Source of the DNA: Moniliella sp. 'wahieum'
Taxonomy: Eukaryota
DNA: 64,000 nucleotides
Reading direction: 5' to 3'
Assembly: GCA_003971905.1 (NCBI GenBank)
Contig: RSEE01000141.1
Coordinates: 62,001 to 126,000 of the forward strand
Below are positions 14,524 through 62,015 of the stretch, one piece after another; the stretch's first letter is position 1, and each line of letters starts with the position of its first letter. The position numbers and the translations under genes are program-made. Below the pieces are notes generated by a model. The model was not told where the DNA came from and did not search any database. It worked only from the letters and a program-made list of their open reading frames with translations.

Positions 14524-16947
14524 TGCAGATGGACTGCACATTGCCCTGCGCGCGCTGCTGCGTCTGTGTGGCCCGCCCCGCCCGCACGCTGCGCTGCGCA
14601 CGGACCGCGCACCCCGGACAGCGACACAGACGCACTGCGCCAGTCGTCGTCGCAGCGTCGACGTCATCTCGATCCCCTCCGTCTGCCATCATCCATCATC
14701 CATCTCACCCATCTTCGCTTCTCTTCCGTCGCATTAATAACCCGCTGGCCCTGGCCCGCGTCCTGTCCGAGGCCTTGGTGAACATGTGAACATGCAATCC
14801 TTCTGGCTCTCGCACGCATCCCCCAGCGCCCATCGTCGCCTCGTCCGCGTCATTACCATTCGTCATCAAAAAGCTCAAGCTCAGCCGGAGCACTGAGGGA
14901 CTGAGGCTCAGCCCACTAGCCAGCACCGAAGCTGTCACGTGGCTGTCACGTGGCGCATGTCAGCAAGCGCTCCGCTCCCACACAGCCCCCCCATTCCGGC
15001 CCGACCACACACACCCCCCCCCCTCCCCGTCCGCAAAGTCCGCCCCATCCGCCCCGTTCTGTCCCGTCTGCATCGGATTGTGCTGGGGCCTGCTGCGCGC
15101 TCAGGCGCTCAGGGCCCGCGGATGCGCAGATCCTCAGAGTCGCCGCCATCCCGGGGGCTGAGTCGCTTTGCGTTCCGCCCCCGGCCCATTCCGCGTCCGC
15201 TGCAGGCCCAACCTCCGGGCTAGGTGAGAAAGGTAGCAGATGCGAGATGCTCAATGGAAGGTGCAAGCGCCCGGGTGAAAGCGCGATGACGTCACGTGAC
15301 GTCCCTGCGGTCACGCGGACGCGGCACGCGGTGCCCGTCCCGAGCGCTGGGACCGCGGTGGTTAGATCGGCTTACGCCGTTACGTGGCTCGGTGTTATAT
15401 ATCCTGGGGTACTTGAAGCTTGAGATTCCTCCCGACCATCATGATGCAGAGGGCCATTATCGAGCTCGGACACTGAGCGGCTGAGCACACCAAGGGAGAG
15501 CCAGGGCCCAAGATCTCCAAGCCCGTATATATCTCCACCACCTCGAGCGTTTTTTCGCCCTCACACATGGGATCCGCCAGAATAGTAAGCGCGAAGCCCT
15601 AGCAGAGAAACCGAAAATCAACAATGGGCGGGTCCCGCGGTCATCGAATCGAGGTCATCGATCATCCGACAACCTATACTAGTAGTAGTATCTTATGTCC
15701 GCCATGCTCAACCCCACCGACGTCTCCAGCTGAGGTGGATAACAATCATCATCATTAATCACTGTACCTTGTGGCCACCGCGGTCCCCAGTCCAGGTCCC
15801 GTCCCGTAAGTCAGACCAAACGTGTTAACCAGGATGGCCAGTGCCATGTGGAAGGTAGTGGGGCGAGACCAAAGGGGAGAGAACATACGCGATATATGAG
15901 GGTAGGCCATTTTAGCCATAGCACAATCTCCAATCTCGTGCGTTCCATCCCATAGGCGCACACATATGCCAAGGGCCCACATTCGGCGGAAGCCAGGCGC
16001 GCTGGCCAGCGGCTGGAAGGATGCTCTGAACATCATGCCAGGGGATCGAGTGCTGGTCACTCTACCCTCAGTCGTCTCTGTGGTTCCTGTGGCTATCGGT
16101 TATCGGGTCCGCGAGATGAAAAAAAGGGGCATGGTCAGCAAGGCCCCACAAGCGAAACCGCCGCGCAAAAGAACTTTTAGGGTCAAGCGAACGAGACACT
16201 AGTCACTGTGCACAGTACGGACAATGCGACCAGCGCGGCTGAGTAGAACGAGATATGCCCCAGAAGAGAAAGAGGAAGAGTGGAAGGATGTGGTAGAGGT
16301 GTGCTTGCTTCCCTGGTCAGTACCAGTACTCAGTACTTAGTTGACATGTTGACATTGCCTCGCTCCCTCTCCCCCTTCCCCCGGGCTTTTCCCTGCGTTT
16401 CCGCCGCGGCAAACCGAGTCAGCAGGACTCAGACGCCGAGTCCCTCTCGGGGCTTGGGACGGGGTGGGATCGGGGATGTGGTGGGGTCTGGGAGGGTTCT
16501 TCTGGGCGCGTCACGCGTCACGTATTCGCTTGGTCGATGGTCAGCGCAACCAGTGACTATCGACGGACGTTAGTACTTGGTCGCTAGTTGCTAGTCGCTG
16601 GCAGTGCCAGGTCACATGTCACAGAACGGGGGTGACAAGGGGGCACCGACGGAGTGTTCCCACGCCTGGCAACGCGCGCCGCCCTTTGGGGTGTTTAATT
16701 CCTGCGGGCGAGAGGGCCACTGGCGCCGTGCGGGCTGCTGGCGCCACACGGTCACAGCCGCTGCGTGCTGCTGCGTGCGGCTGCATGCGGCTTTCTGTGC
16801 CCGACCAGGAAAGCGCGCCTTGGACAGCCAACGTCCGACGCACCCATCCGTACAAGCGCATCGCCCCTCCCCGCCCCCCCCTTGGCGACCTCCTTGCTTC
16901 CTCTCCTCCACCCCGTCTCCTCCTCCCCCCCGCCGTCCTCGCCCACC

Positions 16948-17700
16948 ATGTCAGGCAAGATGATGATCTACAAACTGGTTGTCCTGGGCGATGGCGGCGT
17001 AGGCAAGACCGCGCTGACGATCCAGGTGTGTACAGTTCGGTTCCCTAATGACTTTTTTTCTTTAACCTGGCTGCGACGTTTTTTTACCCCCACGGCACCA
17101 TGGCCAAACGGCCACCGCTAACCGCTGTCCTTGGTTTTGGTTTGTTCATATGTACCGCTCGCTTCGTGCTTGGCCGGGTGGAGTAGCTGTGCCTCAACCA
17201 TTTTGTCGAGACGTATGACCCGACCATCGAGGACTCGTATCGCAAACAAACTGTCATTGACGACCAGCCGTGTATGCTCGAGGTGCTCGACACGGCTGGG
17301 CAGGAGGAGTACACGGCGCTGCGGGACCAATGGTGCGCGAAGGCGAGGGGTTTCTGTTGGTGTACTCGATTGTGAGTCGGCCGACGTTGAGCGCATCGAG
17401 CGGTTCAAGAACCAGATTACGCGCGTGAAAGATGATCCTAATGTGCCCACCATCCTCGTGGGGAACAAGTGCGACAAGGCCGACGAGCGGGAAGTGGCGC
17501 CGGAAGAAGGCGAAGCGCTGGCGACCCGACTTGGGTGCCAGTTTGTCGAAACGTCAGCCAAGACGTGTGAATGTGGAAAAGGCGTATCTCAACGTTGTCC
17601 GCTTGATCCGCGAACAACGGGGTGAGATTGTCAAGCATGCACAAAGGGAAGGAGGAATCCATTCAAGTCCGACCCCAAGACCAAATGCTTCCTGTTTTAA
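16948..17700 (+). CDS. RAS2: Ras small GTPase, fungal Ras2 type
   Basis: [26 protein letters not shown], intron 17026-17186, then [33 protein letters not shown] and ETSAK. With one indel the C-terminus reads ...[17 protein letters not shown], a CAAX box. Confidence 0.97.
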
Positions 17701-18468
17701 TACGTTCCCGCCCCCCTCTTTCCCTCTGGCCCAAGGTTTTCTTCTTTCTTGTCTTTTGTAGACGCCCTCTTCCCAGCAACTTTATACCCCAAGAAAAGAG
17801 CTTCCTCCCCCCCCCCCCCCTGCCTTTCTCACTGTGCTTTCTGAGCATCCCTCCTTGCCTCGTGGCTGTGGATTGATACCTCCTCCAATAGGTCCACCGA
17901 CCACACCTCTTGCGGACGGATGGCGGTACGTTGCATGTTTTCCATCCCGTACTCCAACTTATGTCGCCCGTTTCGTTTGCAGACATGCTTGTGCCACCTT
18001 TGTTATGCCTTCTCTCTTCCTCGCATCTCTCCTCTCCCCAGCACAAGGTCAGTTTGGCTTGCATCAAGCCAGGCGAGGGCCGTGCCTCGTGGCGGTAGCG
18101 GGTTGCGATGCAGCACCTACACATCCCATTGCTAGTAGAGGGGGGCGCATGCGGCAGTGGATACTAGTTGCTACTGGCTAATTGCTCGGTACCAGTTACT
18201 AGTTGCTAGTTGCTCGTAACTCGTAACTCGTAACTGCCCGGTTACCGGTTATGACGGCGCCAGTGACCCAGGGGTACGGCCGCGCAGTTAGGACTTAGTA
18301 GGCGCCAGGCGCACACAACCGTTGGGCCCTGGTCCCCAATTTCATCTTTCAAAGCGGATTCAGACCGACGGGGCTACTAGTGGCTGGACGGCCTCCGCTC
18401 TCCTCCTATCCCCTCTCCTCTGCCCTCCTCTTCTCTCTCCTCTCCTCTCCATCCACCTCCACTTCGCC

Positions 18469-60385: not shown

Positions 60386-60769
60386 ACCCGACATGGGCGT
60401 CCTTTCTTTTTTTCTTGCCGTTTTGCTCCATCAAGTCAAGTTCACTAGCTCTGAATTTCTCCTCAAATTGGATGGACGGTAGCTAATTAATGGATACTCT
60501 GAGTGGGATAGGAAGGAGTCCTGACCAGGCCGTGCTAGCCTGTGACCTATGACTGATCCCCTTTATCTTGGCCTTGGTCAAGTCGGCTAGCCCCAGGGCG
60601 TGTGCTGGGAGCTCCGACAGCGTGTCTCTCTTCGGTGCAACACATGTCCGGCGCACGGCCCGGTCCTCATGCATCCCACTCTGCTCTGGTCGATCAGAAA
60701 GAAGGCTTGCCTGACTGCCCACCCACCCATCACTGTTTGTTGGTCGTGCCATCCACCCTCTTTCCCACC

Positions 60770-61295
60770 ATGCCTACCGCCTACAGTACCCCTGACGCAC
60801 CAGCCGCTTTGGGTCCCTACTCCCAGGTCATTGTGCACGAGGCCACTCAGACCGCCTATGTTTCCGGCTGCATTCCGCTCGACCCAAACGGCAAATTGGT
60901 CGAGGTGTGGCGAGGAGATGCTTCGGCGCCTGGAGTGATTGAGAAGCAGACGGAGCAGGTGTTCAAGAACTTGTTTGCTGTGCTTAAGGCCGCTGGGGCA
61001 GAAAAATCGTCGGTGCTAAAGACGACGGTGTTCATCAAGAACATGGAACACTTTAAGCGAATCAATGCTGTATACGAGCAGGTGCGTGCATGGGATATTT
61101 CTCTCCTCGCCTCACCCCGATTGCCTTGCATGCTTAGTACCATCCCTCATACTGACCTGTCATGTTTCCCCATATTAGGCTTTTGAAGGCCACAAGCCTG
61201 CCCGCTCTGCTGTCGAGGTCGCACGTCTTCCTCTCGACGTTAGCATTGAAATTGAGTGTGTTGCTGCGATGGTCAAAGCCCCGGGCAGTGCCTAG
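60770..61295 (+). CDS. RidA/YjgF/UK114 enamine-imine deaminase (Mmf1/Hmf1-like)
   Basis: APAALGPYSQ, YVSGCIPLDP, QTEQVFKNL.AVL.AAG, VLKTTVF and INAVY. Intron 61082-61178, then FEGHKPARSAVEVARLPLDVSIEIECVA. Confidence 0.95.
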
Positions 61296-62015
61296 AGGGA
61301 CATCAGCATCCGGTGCGCATCTTCCCGCTGCCCTCCGCCCCTCGCCTCCTGTACACAGACGTACACCTAGGTGGGGGGTCATCTACCACCGTATCTGCAA
61401 TGCCATAATATTTGGTTTTCTCTTCCTTGCAGTCATTTCGACCGCAGTGGCCAGCACTGATGATGCATCCAGCTCCTATCATTCACTTTCCATTCTGTGT
61501 TCCTGCGTTCCTGTCATCATGCACGTTGAACGGTGCGCCACTGGCTTCTTGGTAGGCACATGTGACAGACAACCACCACAGGGGGGTGTAGCTTTGTCTC
61601 CTCGTTTGGATCTCCCCCCCCAGTTGTCTGCACCTTGCTCTGCGTTGACTTCTACTATCCACCTTGCTTGGTCCCATCTAACTGGGCCCTCGCCCATGTC
61701 GGATGCTTCTGGATTAGGCACTTCCAAACTCCAGGGGGGAAGAGACGAGCCGCAGGGACTAGTGTGATATGGGGCCGGGAGCCAGGGTGGCACGTGACGC
61801 GTGACAGGGCCGGCTGGCGGAACAACGGTCAGAGAGGGAGAGCGGAATGGGACAGGTGAGGCCTGAGGGACAGTGTGCTAGTGTCCGAGTTGGCTGCCGA
61901 GTGCCTCCAAACCAGTCCGGTCACGTCGCGCTTTCCGCCGTGGAGCGCCATTGGCCAGCTACCACCACCACCACCACCATCGCAGCTGCCTGCTCCGAGC
62001 CGCTGCCACCACACC

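Follow-up and report, generated by a model that had tools for sequence, protein, structure and literature searches.

In V(D)J coding joints, hairpin-capped breaks give rise to P nucleotides, in which the added bases are the reverse complement of the adjacent flank. The duplications of hAT elements are 8 bp long with the consensus nTnnnnAn, and their footprints vary in size. Transib and RAG-type transposons produce a 5-bp duplication and hairpins on the flanks, and we know of no TNA target preference for them. PIF/Harbinger elements (Tourist and mPing) prefer gene-proximal noncoding DNA, and canonical Tc1/mariner footprints, e.g., TA-CAG-TA of Sleeping Beauty, are short odd palindromes with a central mismatch that is resolved either way. 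Heptamer direct repeats are known as STRR from cyanobacteria, and tandem ACGCGT hexamers form the MluI cell-cycle box arrays of fungal promoters. Palindromic footprint bases copied from flanking DNA are given as the signature of hairpin-forming hAT (Ac/Ds) excision (PMC4561436), and TAACTGA heptamer direct repeats have been described in Beggiatoaceae (PMC4679880).

The whole analysis covers one 64-kb window, a single stretch from a single assembly of Moniliella sp. 'wahieum', a smut-related fungus. Like hAT (Ac/Ds) footprints (PMC4561436), the arrays in this window keep both copies of a duplication, with the reverse complement of the adjacent flank between them. In contrast to hAT, the repeat is 5 nt long and starts with TNA, exactly 2 filler bases lie away from the TNA, and the net change is always +7; no element was seen in the window. 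Since the filler at hAT and V(D)J breaks and in these arrays is the reverse complement of the adjacent flank, the palindrome sequence is dictated by the flank. The 5-bp direct repeat and the hairpin chemistry on flanking DNA of Transib/RAG would yield a repeat, a P-type filler, and the repeat again. However, that system does not explain the one-sided P addition observed here, and a Pfam scan of the open reading frames (ORFs) in the window detected no Transib or RAG-like domain. Tc1/mariner footprints are likewise short odd palindromes, but in those the element-end bases are constant and the duplication is TA, whereas here the central N is copied rather than randomized and the arms come from the host. 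The MluI cell-cycle box differs in that ACGCGT is only one core out of at least 10 in the window, with adjoining genes that are not typical targets. The T-N-A trinucleotide target and the preference for noncoding DNA close to genes are shared with PIF/Harbinger, but these elements have a 3-bp duplication and generally precise excision (PMC4561436), in contrast to the 5-nt repeat and templated filler found here. The Beggiatoaceae and cyanobacterial heptamers are similarly intergenic arrays with a 7-nt period but are bacterial, have one fixed unit (TAACTGA in Beggiatoaceae; PMC4679880), and are not known to show flank-templated palindromes. A literature search found no published description of seven-base TNA-anchored arrays. 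For the ATTCACG arrays of Ustilago maydis, it returned incidental matches only, among the matches listed.

RESULTS

Enrichment and anchoring of the arrays

The initial annotation described palindromic hexamers that begin with A, end with T, and are separated by one nucleotide. This observation was confirmed: the stated hexamer was present at all 36 positions tested from that annotation, and 11 different A..T palindromic hexamers occur in the window, as had been counted. With the 1-nt spacer there were 18 adjacent A..T pairs (13 with an identical core and 5 with unlike cores), compared to a mean of 0.37 and a maximum of 4 in 100 dinucleotide-preserving shuffles of 1-kb blocks. A..T pairs at spacers of 0, 2, 3, and 4 nt numbered 3, 1, 0, and 0, and C..G, G..C, and T..A pairs with the 1-nt spacer numbered 2, 2, and 0 (shuffle means, 1.9, 2.0, and 0.6). 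Exact period-7 tandem duplications were also in excess (30 versus 4.6 ± 2.0 in shuffles). Half of their units (15/30) consist of a palindromic hexamer plus 1 base, and all 15 are A..T bounded; by chance, about 1.9% would be A..T bounded and about 9% would fall into the other three classes together, for which none was observed. Periods 6, 8, and 9 likewise exceeded the shuffle level, but self-complementary units reaching the best possible match were found in only 1 of 66 cases at period 6 and in none at period 8 or 9. At period 5, for which no expectation was computed, 31 of 119 units reached it.

While the A...T pattern with its spacer is real, it falls short as a full description, as the constant feature is T-N-A, mostly TGA or TCA, directly repeated every 7 nt on one strand. 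At lag 7 there were 33 TGA>TGA and 42 TCA>TCA pairs (25 and 22 at lag 14), versus about 6 to 19 at lags divisible by neither 3 nor 7; the mixed lag-7 pairs TGA>TCA and TCA>TGA numbered 10 and 13. The N4 was palindromic in 42 of 75 TGA-N4-TGA and 6 of 13 TAA-N4-TAA occurrences, compared to 5.7% of all 4-mers, and no other flanking triplet was comparable (the next was CCC, with 10/174). The unit is therefore T-N-A plus a 4-nt palindrome, with the T-N-A triplets as direct repeats, which is a sharper rule than the original one.

The 12-mer module

The smallest module is a 12-mer of the form W + revcomp(last 2 nt of W) + W, where W is T-N-A-x-y. Perfect 12-mers occur at 28 loci, compared to 0.35 ± 0.65 in 60 shuffles, and 12-mers with up to 1 substitution occur at 58 loci, compared to 9.6; two-substitution copies show little excess. 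The exact period-7 lengths of TNA-pal4-TNA arrays (nt:count) were 10:3, 11:2, 12:14, 13:6, 14:4, 15:2, 16:1, 17:2, 18:1, 19:2, 26:1, and 51:1, with a peak at 12 nt, and by our reading of this list 13 of the 14 12-mers have the phase W.P.W (P being the filler) or its mirror. The 12-mer rule and the length peak together indicate that each palindromic core is a copy of the two bases flanking a TNA.

The rule is precise and restricted to TNA. In 5-nt direct repeats separated by a 2-nt filler, the filler was reverse complementary to the final two bases of the repeat in 28 of 36 cases with TCA as the start triplet and in 22 of 32 with TGA, versus 1/11 to 1/6 for the remaining start triplets listed, which is near the expected 1/16; for W beginning with ANT, CNG, and GNC, the fractions were 0/17, 1/34, and 1/38. 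TNAxy repeats were enriched when the filler was 2 nt long, with 56 of 79 repeats palindromic, and again at 9 nt, which is one unit further on, with 21 of 32 palindromic; there was no enrichment at 0, 1, or 3 to 8 nt. A grid of repeat lengths 3 to 9 and fillers 1 to 4 was enriched only at 5+2 and the equivalent 4+3. T precedes the 11-mer SAxy.y'x'T.SAxy in 50 of 57 cases. The filler has a clear polarity, always lying on the side of W away from the TNA, and the mirror product W.N'A.W was found in only 4 of 79 cases.

Stepwise removal of 7-nt insertions explains 41 of 48 TNA-pal4-TNA occurrences (22 loci), although units within uniform arrays pass this test trivially. The other 7 match neither flank; examples are the CCGG unit at 32071 and the switch from ACGT to AGCT at 53958-53974. 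Two-sided growth from a single TNA fits 4 of the 5 unlike-core neighbor pairs, two exactly at a single TCA (23654-23676 and 39487-39529) and two with one substitution (40351-40367 and 57161-57179). The decayed chain at 18162..18251 indicates that mutated, nonpalindromic units are reamplified. At least 10 different cores share one architecture, and array orientation is mixed inside one intergenic region. Core usage is uneven (CG 9, TC 8, AG 6, AC 5, and GG 5, versus GC 1, CT 0, and CA 1), which could reflect selection or hairpin stability.

TABLE 1 Arrays and related motifs, by position in the window
Positions	Strand	Feature
4164..4175		12-mer TCACC.GG.TCACC
15412..15423		12-mer CTTGA.AG.CTTGA, mirror form
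15641..15666		Short chain including 12-mer TCATC.GA.TCATC
15751..15761		TCA.TTAA.TCA 10/11-mer; matches neither flank, outside model
16317..16341		AGTACT array, TCAGTAC units, one indel
16507..16522		ACGCGTC array, exact 16 nt
16611..16623		13-mer G.TCACA.TG.TCACA
18162..18251		Decayed period-7 chain: CTAGTTG units, CTCGTAA x3.3, CCGGTTA x2
23654..23676		Two-sided growth, one TCA: GCTCA.GC.GCTCA then TCACG.CG.TCACG (AGCGCT and ACGCGT of the initial annotation)
25835..25861		AACGTTC x2, then mutated ATCGTTC units
32046..32129	+	Longest chain: ATCGATG units (from left flank GA), one CCGG unit (outside model), AAGCTTG x7 (from right flank AG)
33198..33207		TCA.AGCT.TCA 10-mer, outside model
38735..38751		AAGCTTG array, exact 17 nt
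38778..38790		13-mer GATCA.TC.GATCA.T
38961..38982		AGGCCTG array: TGA GGCC GGCC TGA GGCC TGA
39464..39475		12-mer AATGA.TT.AATGA
39487..39529		Chain GATAA.TC.GATAA / CGTCA.CG.CGTCA.CG.CGTCA / TCAGA.TC.TCAGA; two-sided growth, one TCA (ATCGAT, ACGCGT x2, and AGATCT of the initial annotation)
40234..40252		19-mer TCAGG.CC.TCAGG.CC.TCAGG
40351..40367		TGA.GGCC.TAA.TTAA.TGA; two-sided growth, one substitution in shared TNA
40394..40405		12-mer GATCA.TC.GATCA
42130..42141		12-mer TCAGA.TC.TCAGA
42199..42250		Chain AACGTTC x2, CTTCA.AG.CTTCA, TAAAC.GT.TAAAC
45190..45238		TTA.CCGG.TTA + ACGCGTT array (17 nt), upstream of minus-strand GRDP-like paralogue
45973..45984		12-mer TGAGA.TC.TGAGA
51928..51937		TCA.CCGG.TCA 10-mer, outside model
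53698..53710		13-mer GCCTTA.GG.CCTTA
53929..53976	+	TGA chain, cores AGGT, AC-T, ACGT x3, AGCT, ACCT; ACGT-to-AGCT switch outside model
56247..56272	-	TGA chain, cores CGCG, CACG, CGTG, GCGG; upstream of WH1-domain gene
57140..57193	+	Chain GATGA.TC.GATGA ... AATGA.TT.AATGA, then CGCG units with point substitutions
61793..61805		13-mer CGTGA.CG.CGTGA.C
61857..61868		12-mer TGAGG.CC.TGAGG

Position relative to genes

DNA was regarded as coding with confidence where ORFs had Pfam hits or lay in a paralogous block (19,558 bases, 30.6% of the window; the remaining gene map is incomplete). For this 30.6% only, the claim that no array lies inside coding exons holds: none of 27 loci (P of about 5e-5 under an even spread of loci) and none of 31 exact period-7 duplications were found there. 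Where Pfam matches fix the gene ends, the suggested distance of a few hundred bases from a downstream ATG holds approximately. Loci near known gene ends sit in intergenic regions containing a 5' gene end, and there were none in the three convergent 3'-3' regions identified on the Pfam map, a weak result with about 3 expected. ACGCGT arrays are present in both promoters of an inverted paralogous gene pair. In total, they occur at 7 loci. The adjoining genes are of the transporter, Ras-like, WH1-domain, and GRDP-like types, none of them typical of G1/S.

DISCUSSION

Proposed templated insertion at TNA

We tentatively favor, at a probability of roughly 0.45, the explanation that templated +7 insertions have occurred repeatedly at TNA through a hairpin-like step of break repair and, with subsequent slippage, have left the arrays as their scars. 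Each event would duplicate W, the TNA with two bases on one side, and set y'x', the reverse complement of xy, between the copies (TNAxy -> TNAxy.y'x'.TNAxy, net +7 nt). The 7-nt period and the A-xy-y'x'-T palindrome would both follow from such an event, as would the one-base "spacer," which is the N of TNA. Being a copy of the flank, the core would form a palindrome with any sequence. Either flank of one TNA could be used per event, so that two different palindromic cores would arise in one register. Repeated events and ordinary slippage would lengthen the arrays, and point mutation would blur them afterwards. The change is presumably an insertion. The 2-nt inverted filler would be a P-type nucleotide pair, left where a 5-nt staggered break has had one of its ends folded back or closed into a hairpin, which also happens at hAT and V(D)J breaks. 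A transposase may cut the accessible promoter DNA, either during excision or during an abortive insertion of an element with a 5-bp duplication; a host nuclease is the other candidate. Of the options raised by the initial annotation, the best fit is a local mutational process involving hairpin-mediated break repair, as the cores are templated by the two TNA-flanking bases like P-type nucleotides.

Several findings count against this insertion model. Among 415 ORF translations from the window compared to Pfam (some sent twice), none had a transposase domain, and the window yielded neither a convincing pair of terminal inverted repeats nor a filled site. One-sided filler is not predicted by a symmetric transposase dimer, and the uniform +7 outcome differs from the end-joining footprints of known elements, which vary in size. 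The 7 of 48 untemplated units and the uneven core usage are further points against it.

Alternative explanations

The earlier argument that neither plain slippage nor a single transcription factor explains changing palindromic cores in a fixed register stands. The arrays might still be ordinary microsatellites, in which chance two-copy palindromic heptamer seeds are hairpin capable and slip more readily, with no special birth event, but we consider this unlikely. A 5-bp stem closed by a T-S-A triloop can form from two units. Folding is far stronger than in shuffles for long arrays (32046-32132, z = -6.5; 53929-53976, z = -4.9), whereas it is no stronger for short arrays such as 39487-39530 (z = -0.3) and 57140-57195 (z = -0.2). 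Slippage is also consistent with the identical cores in 13 of 18 hexamer pairs, the reamplification of mutated nonpalindromic units (e.g., CGTTCAT at 25847 and CTCGTAA at 18213), and the enrichment of periods 6, 8, and 9, at which, however, self-complementary units are inconspicuous (1/66 at period 6 and none at 8 or 9). Slippage requires two copies beforehand, but arrays are most often 12 nt long (1.7 copies), with a single fixed phase. It explains neither the match of cores to the flanking dinucleotide nor the TNA-only anchoring, with all 15 palindromic units A..T bounded and none C..G, G..C, or T..A bounded in a genome of about 59% G+C. Somewhat less probable still are selected promoter elements, either sites of a protein or cruciform-binding factor with a 7-bp step or clustered dimeric transcription factor sites such as the MluI cell-cycle box ACGCGT. 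The location beside 5' gene ends and, weakly, the empty convergent regions point in this direction, as do the arrays in both promoters of the inverted pair, the uneven core usage, and the MCB consensus, which we take to be ACGCGTNA and which fits A-CGCG-T-N-A. Copies with two substitutions also barely exceed the shuffle level. However, one architecture spans at least 10 cores, which the neighboring two bases predict, and the palindrome is variable while the directly repeated TNA is constant, unlike DNA reading by a dimeric factor. Orientation is mixed within one region, and the genes beside the 7 ACGCGT loci are not typical of G1/S. The variable palindrome, the mixed orientation, and the seeming scarcity of decayed copies do not support the proposed protein with a 7-bp step, which is improbable.

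Footprints of PIF/Harbinger-type elements, with a 3-bp TNA target duplication whose copies are separated by two residual bases from each inverted terminal repeat, are very improbable. The TNA anchor of this earlier proposal was borne out: direct TNA repeats bracket a palindromic 4-mer, an arrangement of duplication, element ends, and duplication that Tc1/mariner footprints are known to have. In the mPing duplication, the middle base can vary freely, with TTA, TAA, TCA, and TGA used, but PIF/Pong/Harbinger elements are said generally to excise precisely (PMC4561436 for both). Moreover, the repeat is 5 nt rather than 3, the cores match the host flank and not a constant element end, at least 10 cores would require equally many element-end families, and the Pfam scan of the window detected no DDE_Tnp_4 or other transposase domain. 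The 12-mer rule already contradicts this reading. Chance or an assembly artifact is a negligible explanation; only one assembly window lies behind the data, but 28 12-mer loci versus 0.35 and 18 hexamer pairs versus 0.37 in shuffles, in a structure that obeys a flank- and phase-dependent rule, argue against it.

Templated insertion at TNA remains our preferred, if tentative, explanation. Short arrays with a 7-nt period pepper the noncoding DNA of this window, and they look like the scars of one very precise insertion process at T-N-A.

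Enrichment and specificity of the hexamer arrays

The initial annotation had described intergenic arrays of palindromic hexamers that begin with A, end with T, and stand one nucleotide apart, with a period of 7 nt. All 36 of the hexamer positions that we tested were correct, and they comprise 11 different A..T palindromic hexamers. The window contains 18 pairs of such hexamers with a 1-nt spacer (the two cores are identical in 13 and differ in 5, a core being the palindromic 4-mer between two TNA copies), compared to a mean of 0.37 and a maximum of 4 in 100 dinucleotide-preserving shuffles in 1-kb blocks. 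The spacer and the bounding bases were likewise as described. Spacers of 0, 2, 3, and 4 nt yielded only 3, 1, 0, and 0 A..T pairs, and at the 1-nt spacer the C..G-, G..C-, and T..A-bounded hexamers yielded 2, 2, and 0 pairs, all at or below the shuffle means.

Exact period-7 duplications numbered 30, compared to 4.6 ± 2.0 in shuffles. Periods 6, 8, and 9 were also enriched over shuffles, indicating that the content of the unit, and not period 7 per se, is special. Half of the period-7 units (15 of 30) consist of a palindromic hexamer plus one base, and all 15 are bounded by A and T, where about 0.6 would be expected; none of the 30 is a palindromic unit bounded by C..G, G..C, or T..A. At 54264 to 54321, there are nonpalindromic arrays without TNA (four copies of GAAAG, followed by the heptamers GGAAAGC and CGGAAAA), so period-7 amplification is not confined to the TNA class. 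A 14-nt repeat, TCAAATTGCGCATT, is present in 2.5 copies at 52120 to 52169, with TGA at lag 14 and nonpalindromic cores.

A 12-nt module anchored on TNA

Since 13 of the 15 palindromic period-7 units have G or C as the spacer base, the constant feature of the arrays is T-S-A every 7 nt. This repeat is direct. At lag 7, TGA is followed by TGA 33 times and TCA by TCA 42 times, compared to approximately 6 to 19 at lags divisible by neither 3 nor 7, and the mixed TGA/TCA pairs (10 and 13) were not enriched. The intervening 4-mer is palindromic in 42 of 75 TGA-N4-TGA occurrences on both strands and in 6 of 13 TAA-N4-TAA occurrences, against a background of 5.7% of all 4-mers; no such excess was found for other triplets. 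In total, a palindromic 4-mer between two T[GA]A triplets occurs 54 times at 30 loci.

At isolated TNA-palindrome-TNA sites, the match usually continues exactly two bases further, on one side only. The lengths of the exact period-7 arrays with this structure were 10 nt (3 arrays), 11 nt (2), 12 nt (14), 13 nt (6), 14 nt (4), 15 nt (2), 16 nt (1), 17 nt (2), 18 nt (1), 19 nt (2), 26 nt (1), and 51 nt (1). The maximum is thus at 12 nt, or 1.7 copies, whereas chance extension would fall steadily from 10 nt. By our reading of these lengths, 13 of the 14 12-mers have the form TNAxy.y'x'.TNAxy, where y'x' is the reverse complement of xy, or its mirror, y'x'TNA.xy.y'x'TNA. The longer arrays, namely two 19-mers, a 26-mer, and a 51-mer, follow 7n + 5, and the 51-mer would measure 54 nt if TGT at 32076 is a mutated TGA.

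The same module was recovered by a scan blind to TNA, for two copies of any 5-nt word separated by a 2-nt filler that is the reverse complement of the last two bases of the word. Among its 76 matches, the word began with TCA in 28, TGA in 22, TAA in 4, and TTA in 2. Expressed as a share of all 5+2 repeats, the filler was palindromic in this sense for 28 of 36 words beginning with TCA and 22 of 32 beginning with TGA, compared to 1/11 to 1/6 for the other start triplets listed, which is near the 1/16 expected; for words beginning with ANT, CNG, and GNC, it was 0 of 17, 1 of 34, and 1 of 38. TNAxy repeats were enriched solely at a filler of 2 nt (79 repeats, 56 of them palindromic) and at 9 nt, which corresponds to the next unit, with no enrichment at filler lengths of 0, 1, or 3 to 8 nt. 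In a grid of repeat lengths 3 to 9 by filler lengths 1 to 4, only 5+2 and the equivalent 4+3 stood out. Of 57 occurrences of the 11-mer, 50 have a T directly before them, indicating that the leading T is part of the module, and the 4+3 form without it was rejected on this count. Also rejected were a symmetric 5-bp duplication, x'TNAx, plus 2 nt and, since the length peak is at 12 and not 14 nt, a 7-bp duplication of an odd palindrome. Odd palindromes centered on TSA are somewhat frequent (10 to 11%, compared to about 6.5% for other triplets, in a count that included the arrays), and this excess could be attributable to the arrays themselves.

Perfect 12-mers occur at 28 loci, compared to 0.35 ± 0.65 in 60 shuffles, and chance origin is excluded by this count and that of the hexamer pairs (18 against 0.37). 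When up to one substitution was allowed, there were 58 loci against 9.6 in shuffles, and with up to two there were 167 against 124.

Proposed flank templating of the cores

We propose that the arrays arise by templated 7-nt insertions at TNA. A core would then be xy.y'x', in which xy or y'x' is the dinucleotide beside a TNA. Copied in this way from the flank, the core would be palindromic by construction and would vary by site, and since one TNA has two flanks, two different cores could stand in one register. The AGCGCT and ACGCGT of the initial annotation have the form of such two-sided growth at a single TCA (see the table). With its insertions undone, the chain at 39487 to 39529 reads ...GATAACACGTCAGAAGG....

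Stepwise removal of 7-nt insertions explains 41 of the 48 TNA-palindrome-TNA units (22 loci) and leaves 7, although units of uniform arrays pass trivially. At least one flank-matched 12-mer was present at 22 of 27 loci, where, by our arithmetic, a lone 10-mer would show such a match about 12% of the time. The arrays include at least 10 different cores. Two-sided growth at one TNA fully explains two of the five neighboring pairs with different cores (at 23654 to 23676 and 39487 to 39529) and, if a single substitution is allowed in each, two others (at 40351 to 40367 and 57161 to 57179); the remaining pair, AACGTT/AAGCTT at 53960/53967, is left unexplained.

Growth, folding, and decay of arrays

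Nonpalindromic, mutated units are themselves duplicated at period 7, as in CGTTCAT (25847), CTCGTAA (3.3 copies; 18213), and CTAGTTG (18199), indicating that generic slippage or further events act on existing arrays. Two or more units fold into 5-bp stems with T-S-A triloops. Relative to shuffles, folding was considerably more stable in the long arrays (z = -6.5 and -4.9) but not in the short mixed chains. Loci exactly one substitution away from the module outnumber those in shuffles by about 21, somewhat fewer than the perfect loci (28), and at two substitutions the surplus does not rise above noise. This apparent scarcity of decayed copies suggests rapid turnover, recent activity, or selection. 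As the arrays can form hairpins and apparently turn over quickly, they may feed length polymorphism in promoters.

Gene content and location of the arrays

Judged from its sequence, the window belongs to the nuclear genome of a basidiomycete from the Ustilaginomycotina. Tilletiaria anomala provided the best named match to the LETM1-domain open reading frame (ORF), at 70% identity, and next came many proteins from smuts, Exobasidium, and Malassezia, at 57 to 68%. The G+C content is 51 to 68% across 2-kb windows. The gene map, built from Pfam matches of ORF translations, is partial.

Genes identified by Pfam and two examples of array structure
Feature	Coordinates	Strand	Basis or structure
MRS2	4190-5979	+	Pfam
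LETM1	12894-14453 (open frame extends to about 14690)	-	Pfam
Ras-family gene	about 17122-17622	+	Pfam
OPT transporter	21046-23081 (open frame extends to 23649)	-	Pfam
CLN3	24197-25705	-	Pfam
Solute symporter	30130-31158	-	Pfam
PDR-type ABC transporter	about 34081-37985	-	Pfam
Mo25	about 46123-46955	-	Pfam
FtsJ	48254-49240	+	Pfam
WH1-domain gene	54779-56077	-	Pfam
GRDP-like gene	58438-60018	+	Pfam
L-PSP	60557-61183	+	Pfam
Two-sided growth at one TCA	23654-23676		GCTCA.GC.GCTCA then TCACG.CG.TCACG
Chain	39487-39529		GATAA.TC.GATAA, CA, CGTCA.CG.CGTCA.CG.CG[TCA]GA.TC.TCAGA

Two GRDP-like paralogues form an inverted pair about 13 to 17 kb apart, at 42490 to 44463 (-) and 57828 to 59802 (+), with 78 to 88% identity in nine blocks. 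Their upstream regions have diverged, yet ACGCGT arrays and a TTAGGCTTAG motif are common to both; no alignment of the two promoters (45.2 and 57.1 kb) was good enough to trace array evolution. A tRNA-Val gene (anticodon TAC; 60305 to 60385, +; 81 nt), which may contain an intron, lies between the GRDP-like and L-PSP genes; it was the sole match in tRNA and Rfam scans of the window and is unrelated to the arrays. The first 15.4 kb (1 to 15400) has many G-rich and C-rich low-complexity tracts, with 6-, 9-, and 12-nt repeats and up to 68% G+C. Two 15-nt tandem arrays, TGAGAACCGGAAAGT (9.8 copies; 6109 to 6253) and GAGGTCGTTCCGAAA (8.7 copies; 8291 to 8421), occur among long overlapping ORFs without Pfam matches and may be coding repeats of five residues.

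No arrays had been noticed in coding exons. This was borne out for the 30.6% of the window that is confidently coding (ORFs with Pfam hits plus a paralogous block), where no locus (of 27) and no exact period-7 duplication (of 31) fell, but the rest of the map is incomplete. Coding depletion is partly built in, since a TGA or TAA recurring at lag 7 closes two of three frames on one strand. A coding map by codon-usage log-likelihood, trained on the Pfam-hit ORFs, did not discriminate (4% of the window was above the usable threshold) and was discarded. Loci are concentrated in the divergent region between LETM1 and the Ras-family gene (15.4 to 16.6 kb) and in a long ORF-poor stretch upstream of the ABC transporter (38.7 to 42.3 kb), and only one TNA-palindrome locus (4164) lies in the first 15.4 kb. 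Three convergent 3'-3' regions, as read from the Pfam map, contained no loci where about three would be expected, a weak difference. At a few loci, TGA seemed to be oriented consistently with respect to its nearest gene, but the stretch from 38.7 to 42.3 kb contains both orientations, and we draw no conclusion from this feature.

Possible origin of the module

P nucleotides arise from the off-center opening of a hairpin-capped DNA end, and the inverted 2-nt filler takes the same form. We infer that the 7-nt change is an insertion. A 5-nt staggered break at ^TNAxy with both ends filled in, and with two fold-back bases joined at the end away from TNA, would give exactly TNAxy.y'x'.TNAxy. The break could be the work of a host nuclease, or it could be left when an element that makes 5-bp duplications excises or fails to complete its insertion. 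A more far-reaching and tentative interpretation (probability of roughly 0.35) is an undescribed TNA-anchored templated-insertion process in this Ustilaginomycotina lineage, in which an enzyme would cut T-N-A in accessible promoter DNA and repair via a hairpin or fold-back would add exactly 7 nt (TNA, two flank bases, and their inverted copy). The process might derive from a domesticated hairpin-forming transposase. The insertion model does not account for the constant placement of the filler distal to TNA (the mirror product made up 4 of 79), for so uniform an outcome, for the 7 units without a flank template, or for the uneven use of cores. When 415 ORF translations from the window (some duplicated) were scanned against Pfam, no transposase domain was detected. 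A search for terminal inverted repeats yielded one 42-nt pair with 79% complementarity (40547 to 40588 and 42026 to 42067; arms 1,437 nt apart) in the array-rich, ORF-poor stretch; it was rejected as an element, as it has no recognizable ends or target duplication.

Slippage of hairpin-prone heptamers is an unlikely origin. It accounts for array growth but not for the module at birth. A slippage microsatellite has at least two identical units, an arbitrary end phase, and an unconstrained unit, whereas here the modal length is 1.7 copies, 13 of 14 12-mers share one phase or its mirror, and A..T palindromes plus one base make up half of the period-7 units. We consider selection for promoter elements slightly less probable still. 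The location of the arrays in promoters, the apparent fewness of older decayed copies, and the ACGCGT arrays in both promoters of the GRDP-like pair, though these promoters do not align, are in its favor, but it leaves the flank-templated cores and the direct TNA repeat unaccounted for. A transcription factor cluster (e.g., MCB) would be expected to keep one core across orthologous promoters; in this window there are many cores, and ACGCGT recurs in both promoters of the paralogous pair.

Footprints of PIF/Harbinger elements had also been suggested. The repeat is 5 nt (TNAxy) and the array peak is 5+2+5, not a lone 3-bp TNA/TWA duplication, which contradicts that suggestion. Such elements would also be expected to leave constant ends, unlike the 10 or more different cores observed, and the host flank predicts the core in 41 of 48 units. 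In PMC4561436, PIF/Pong/Harbinger elements, which use TNA, are described as generally excising precisely, which together with the 5-nt repeat argues against the Harbinger version. The templated insertions proposed here resemble hAT-type hairpin footprints in having flank-templated palindromic bases between duplication copies (56 of 79 TNAxy repeats). However, hAT-type footprints involve an 8-bp duplication and vary in size by end joining, whereas no enrichment was found here at length 8 and only fillers of 2 nt, and of 9 nt for the next unit, were enriched. The mitochondrial palindromic repeats described in PMC7218506 are not comparable to these arrays. A full-text literature search, judged mostly at the title and abstract level, found no description of this pattern. 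We place the finding with break-repair or excision scars carrying templated palindromic bases, as a variant of these; it would be categorically new if an endogenous enzyme proves responsible.

Implications

If the rule holds genome-wide, it would provide a precise and easily scored mutational signature, +7 nt at TNA with a core predictable from the flank, which could be traced in populations and mutation accumulation lines and used in hunting for the responsible nuclease or transposase. There would then be thousands of self-complementary heptamer arrays in the genome, and a mechanical process would stock fungal promoters with palindromic hexamers (ACGCGT, ATCGAT, AACGTT, AAGCTT, and others) that motif discovery programs would otherwise call transcription factor sites. 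The process would leave a mutational signature specific to this lineage and would generate promoter variation or new cis elements.
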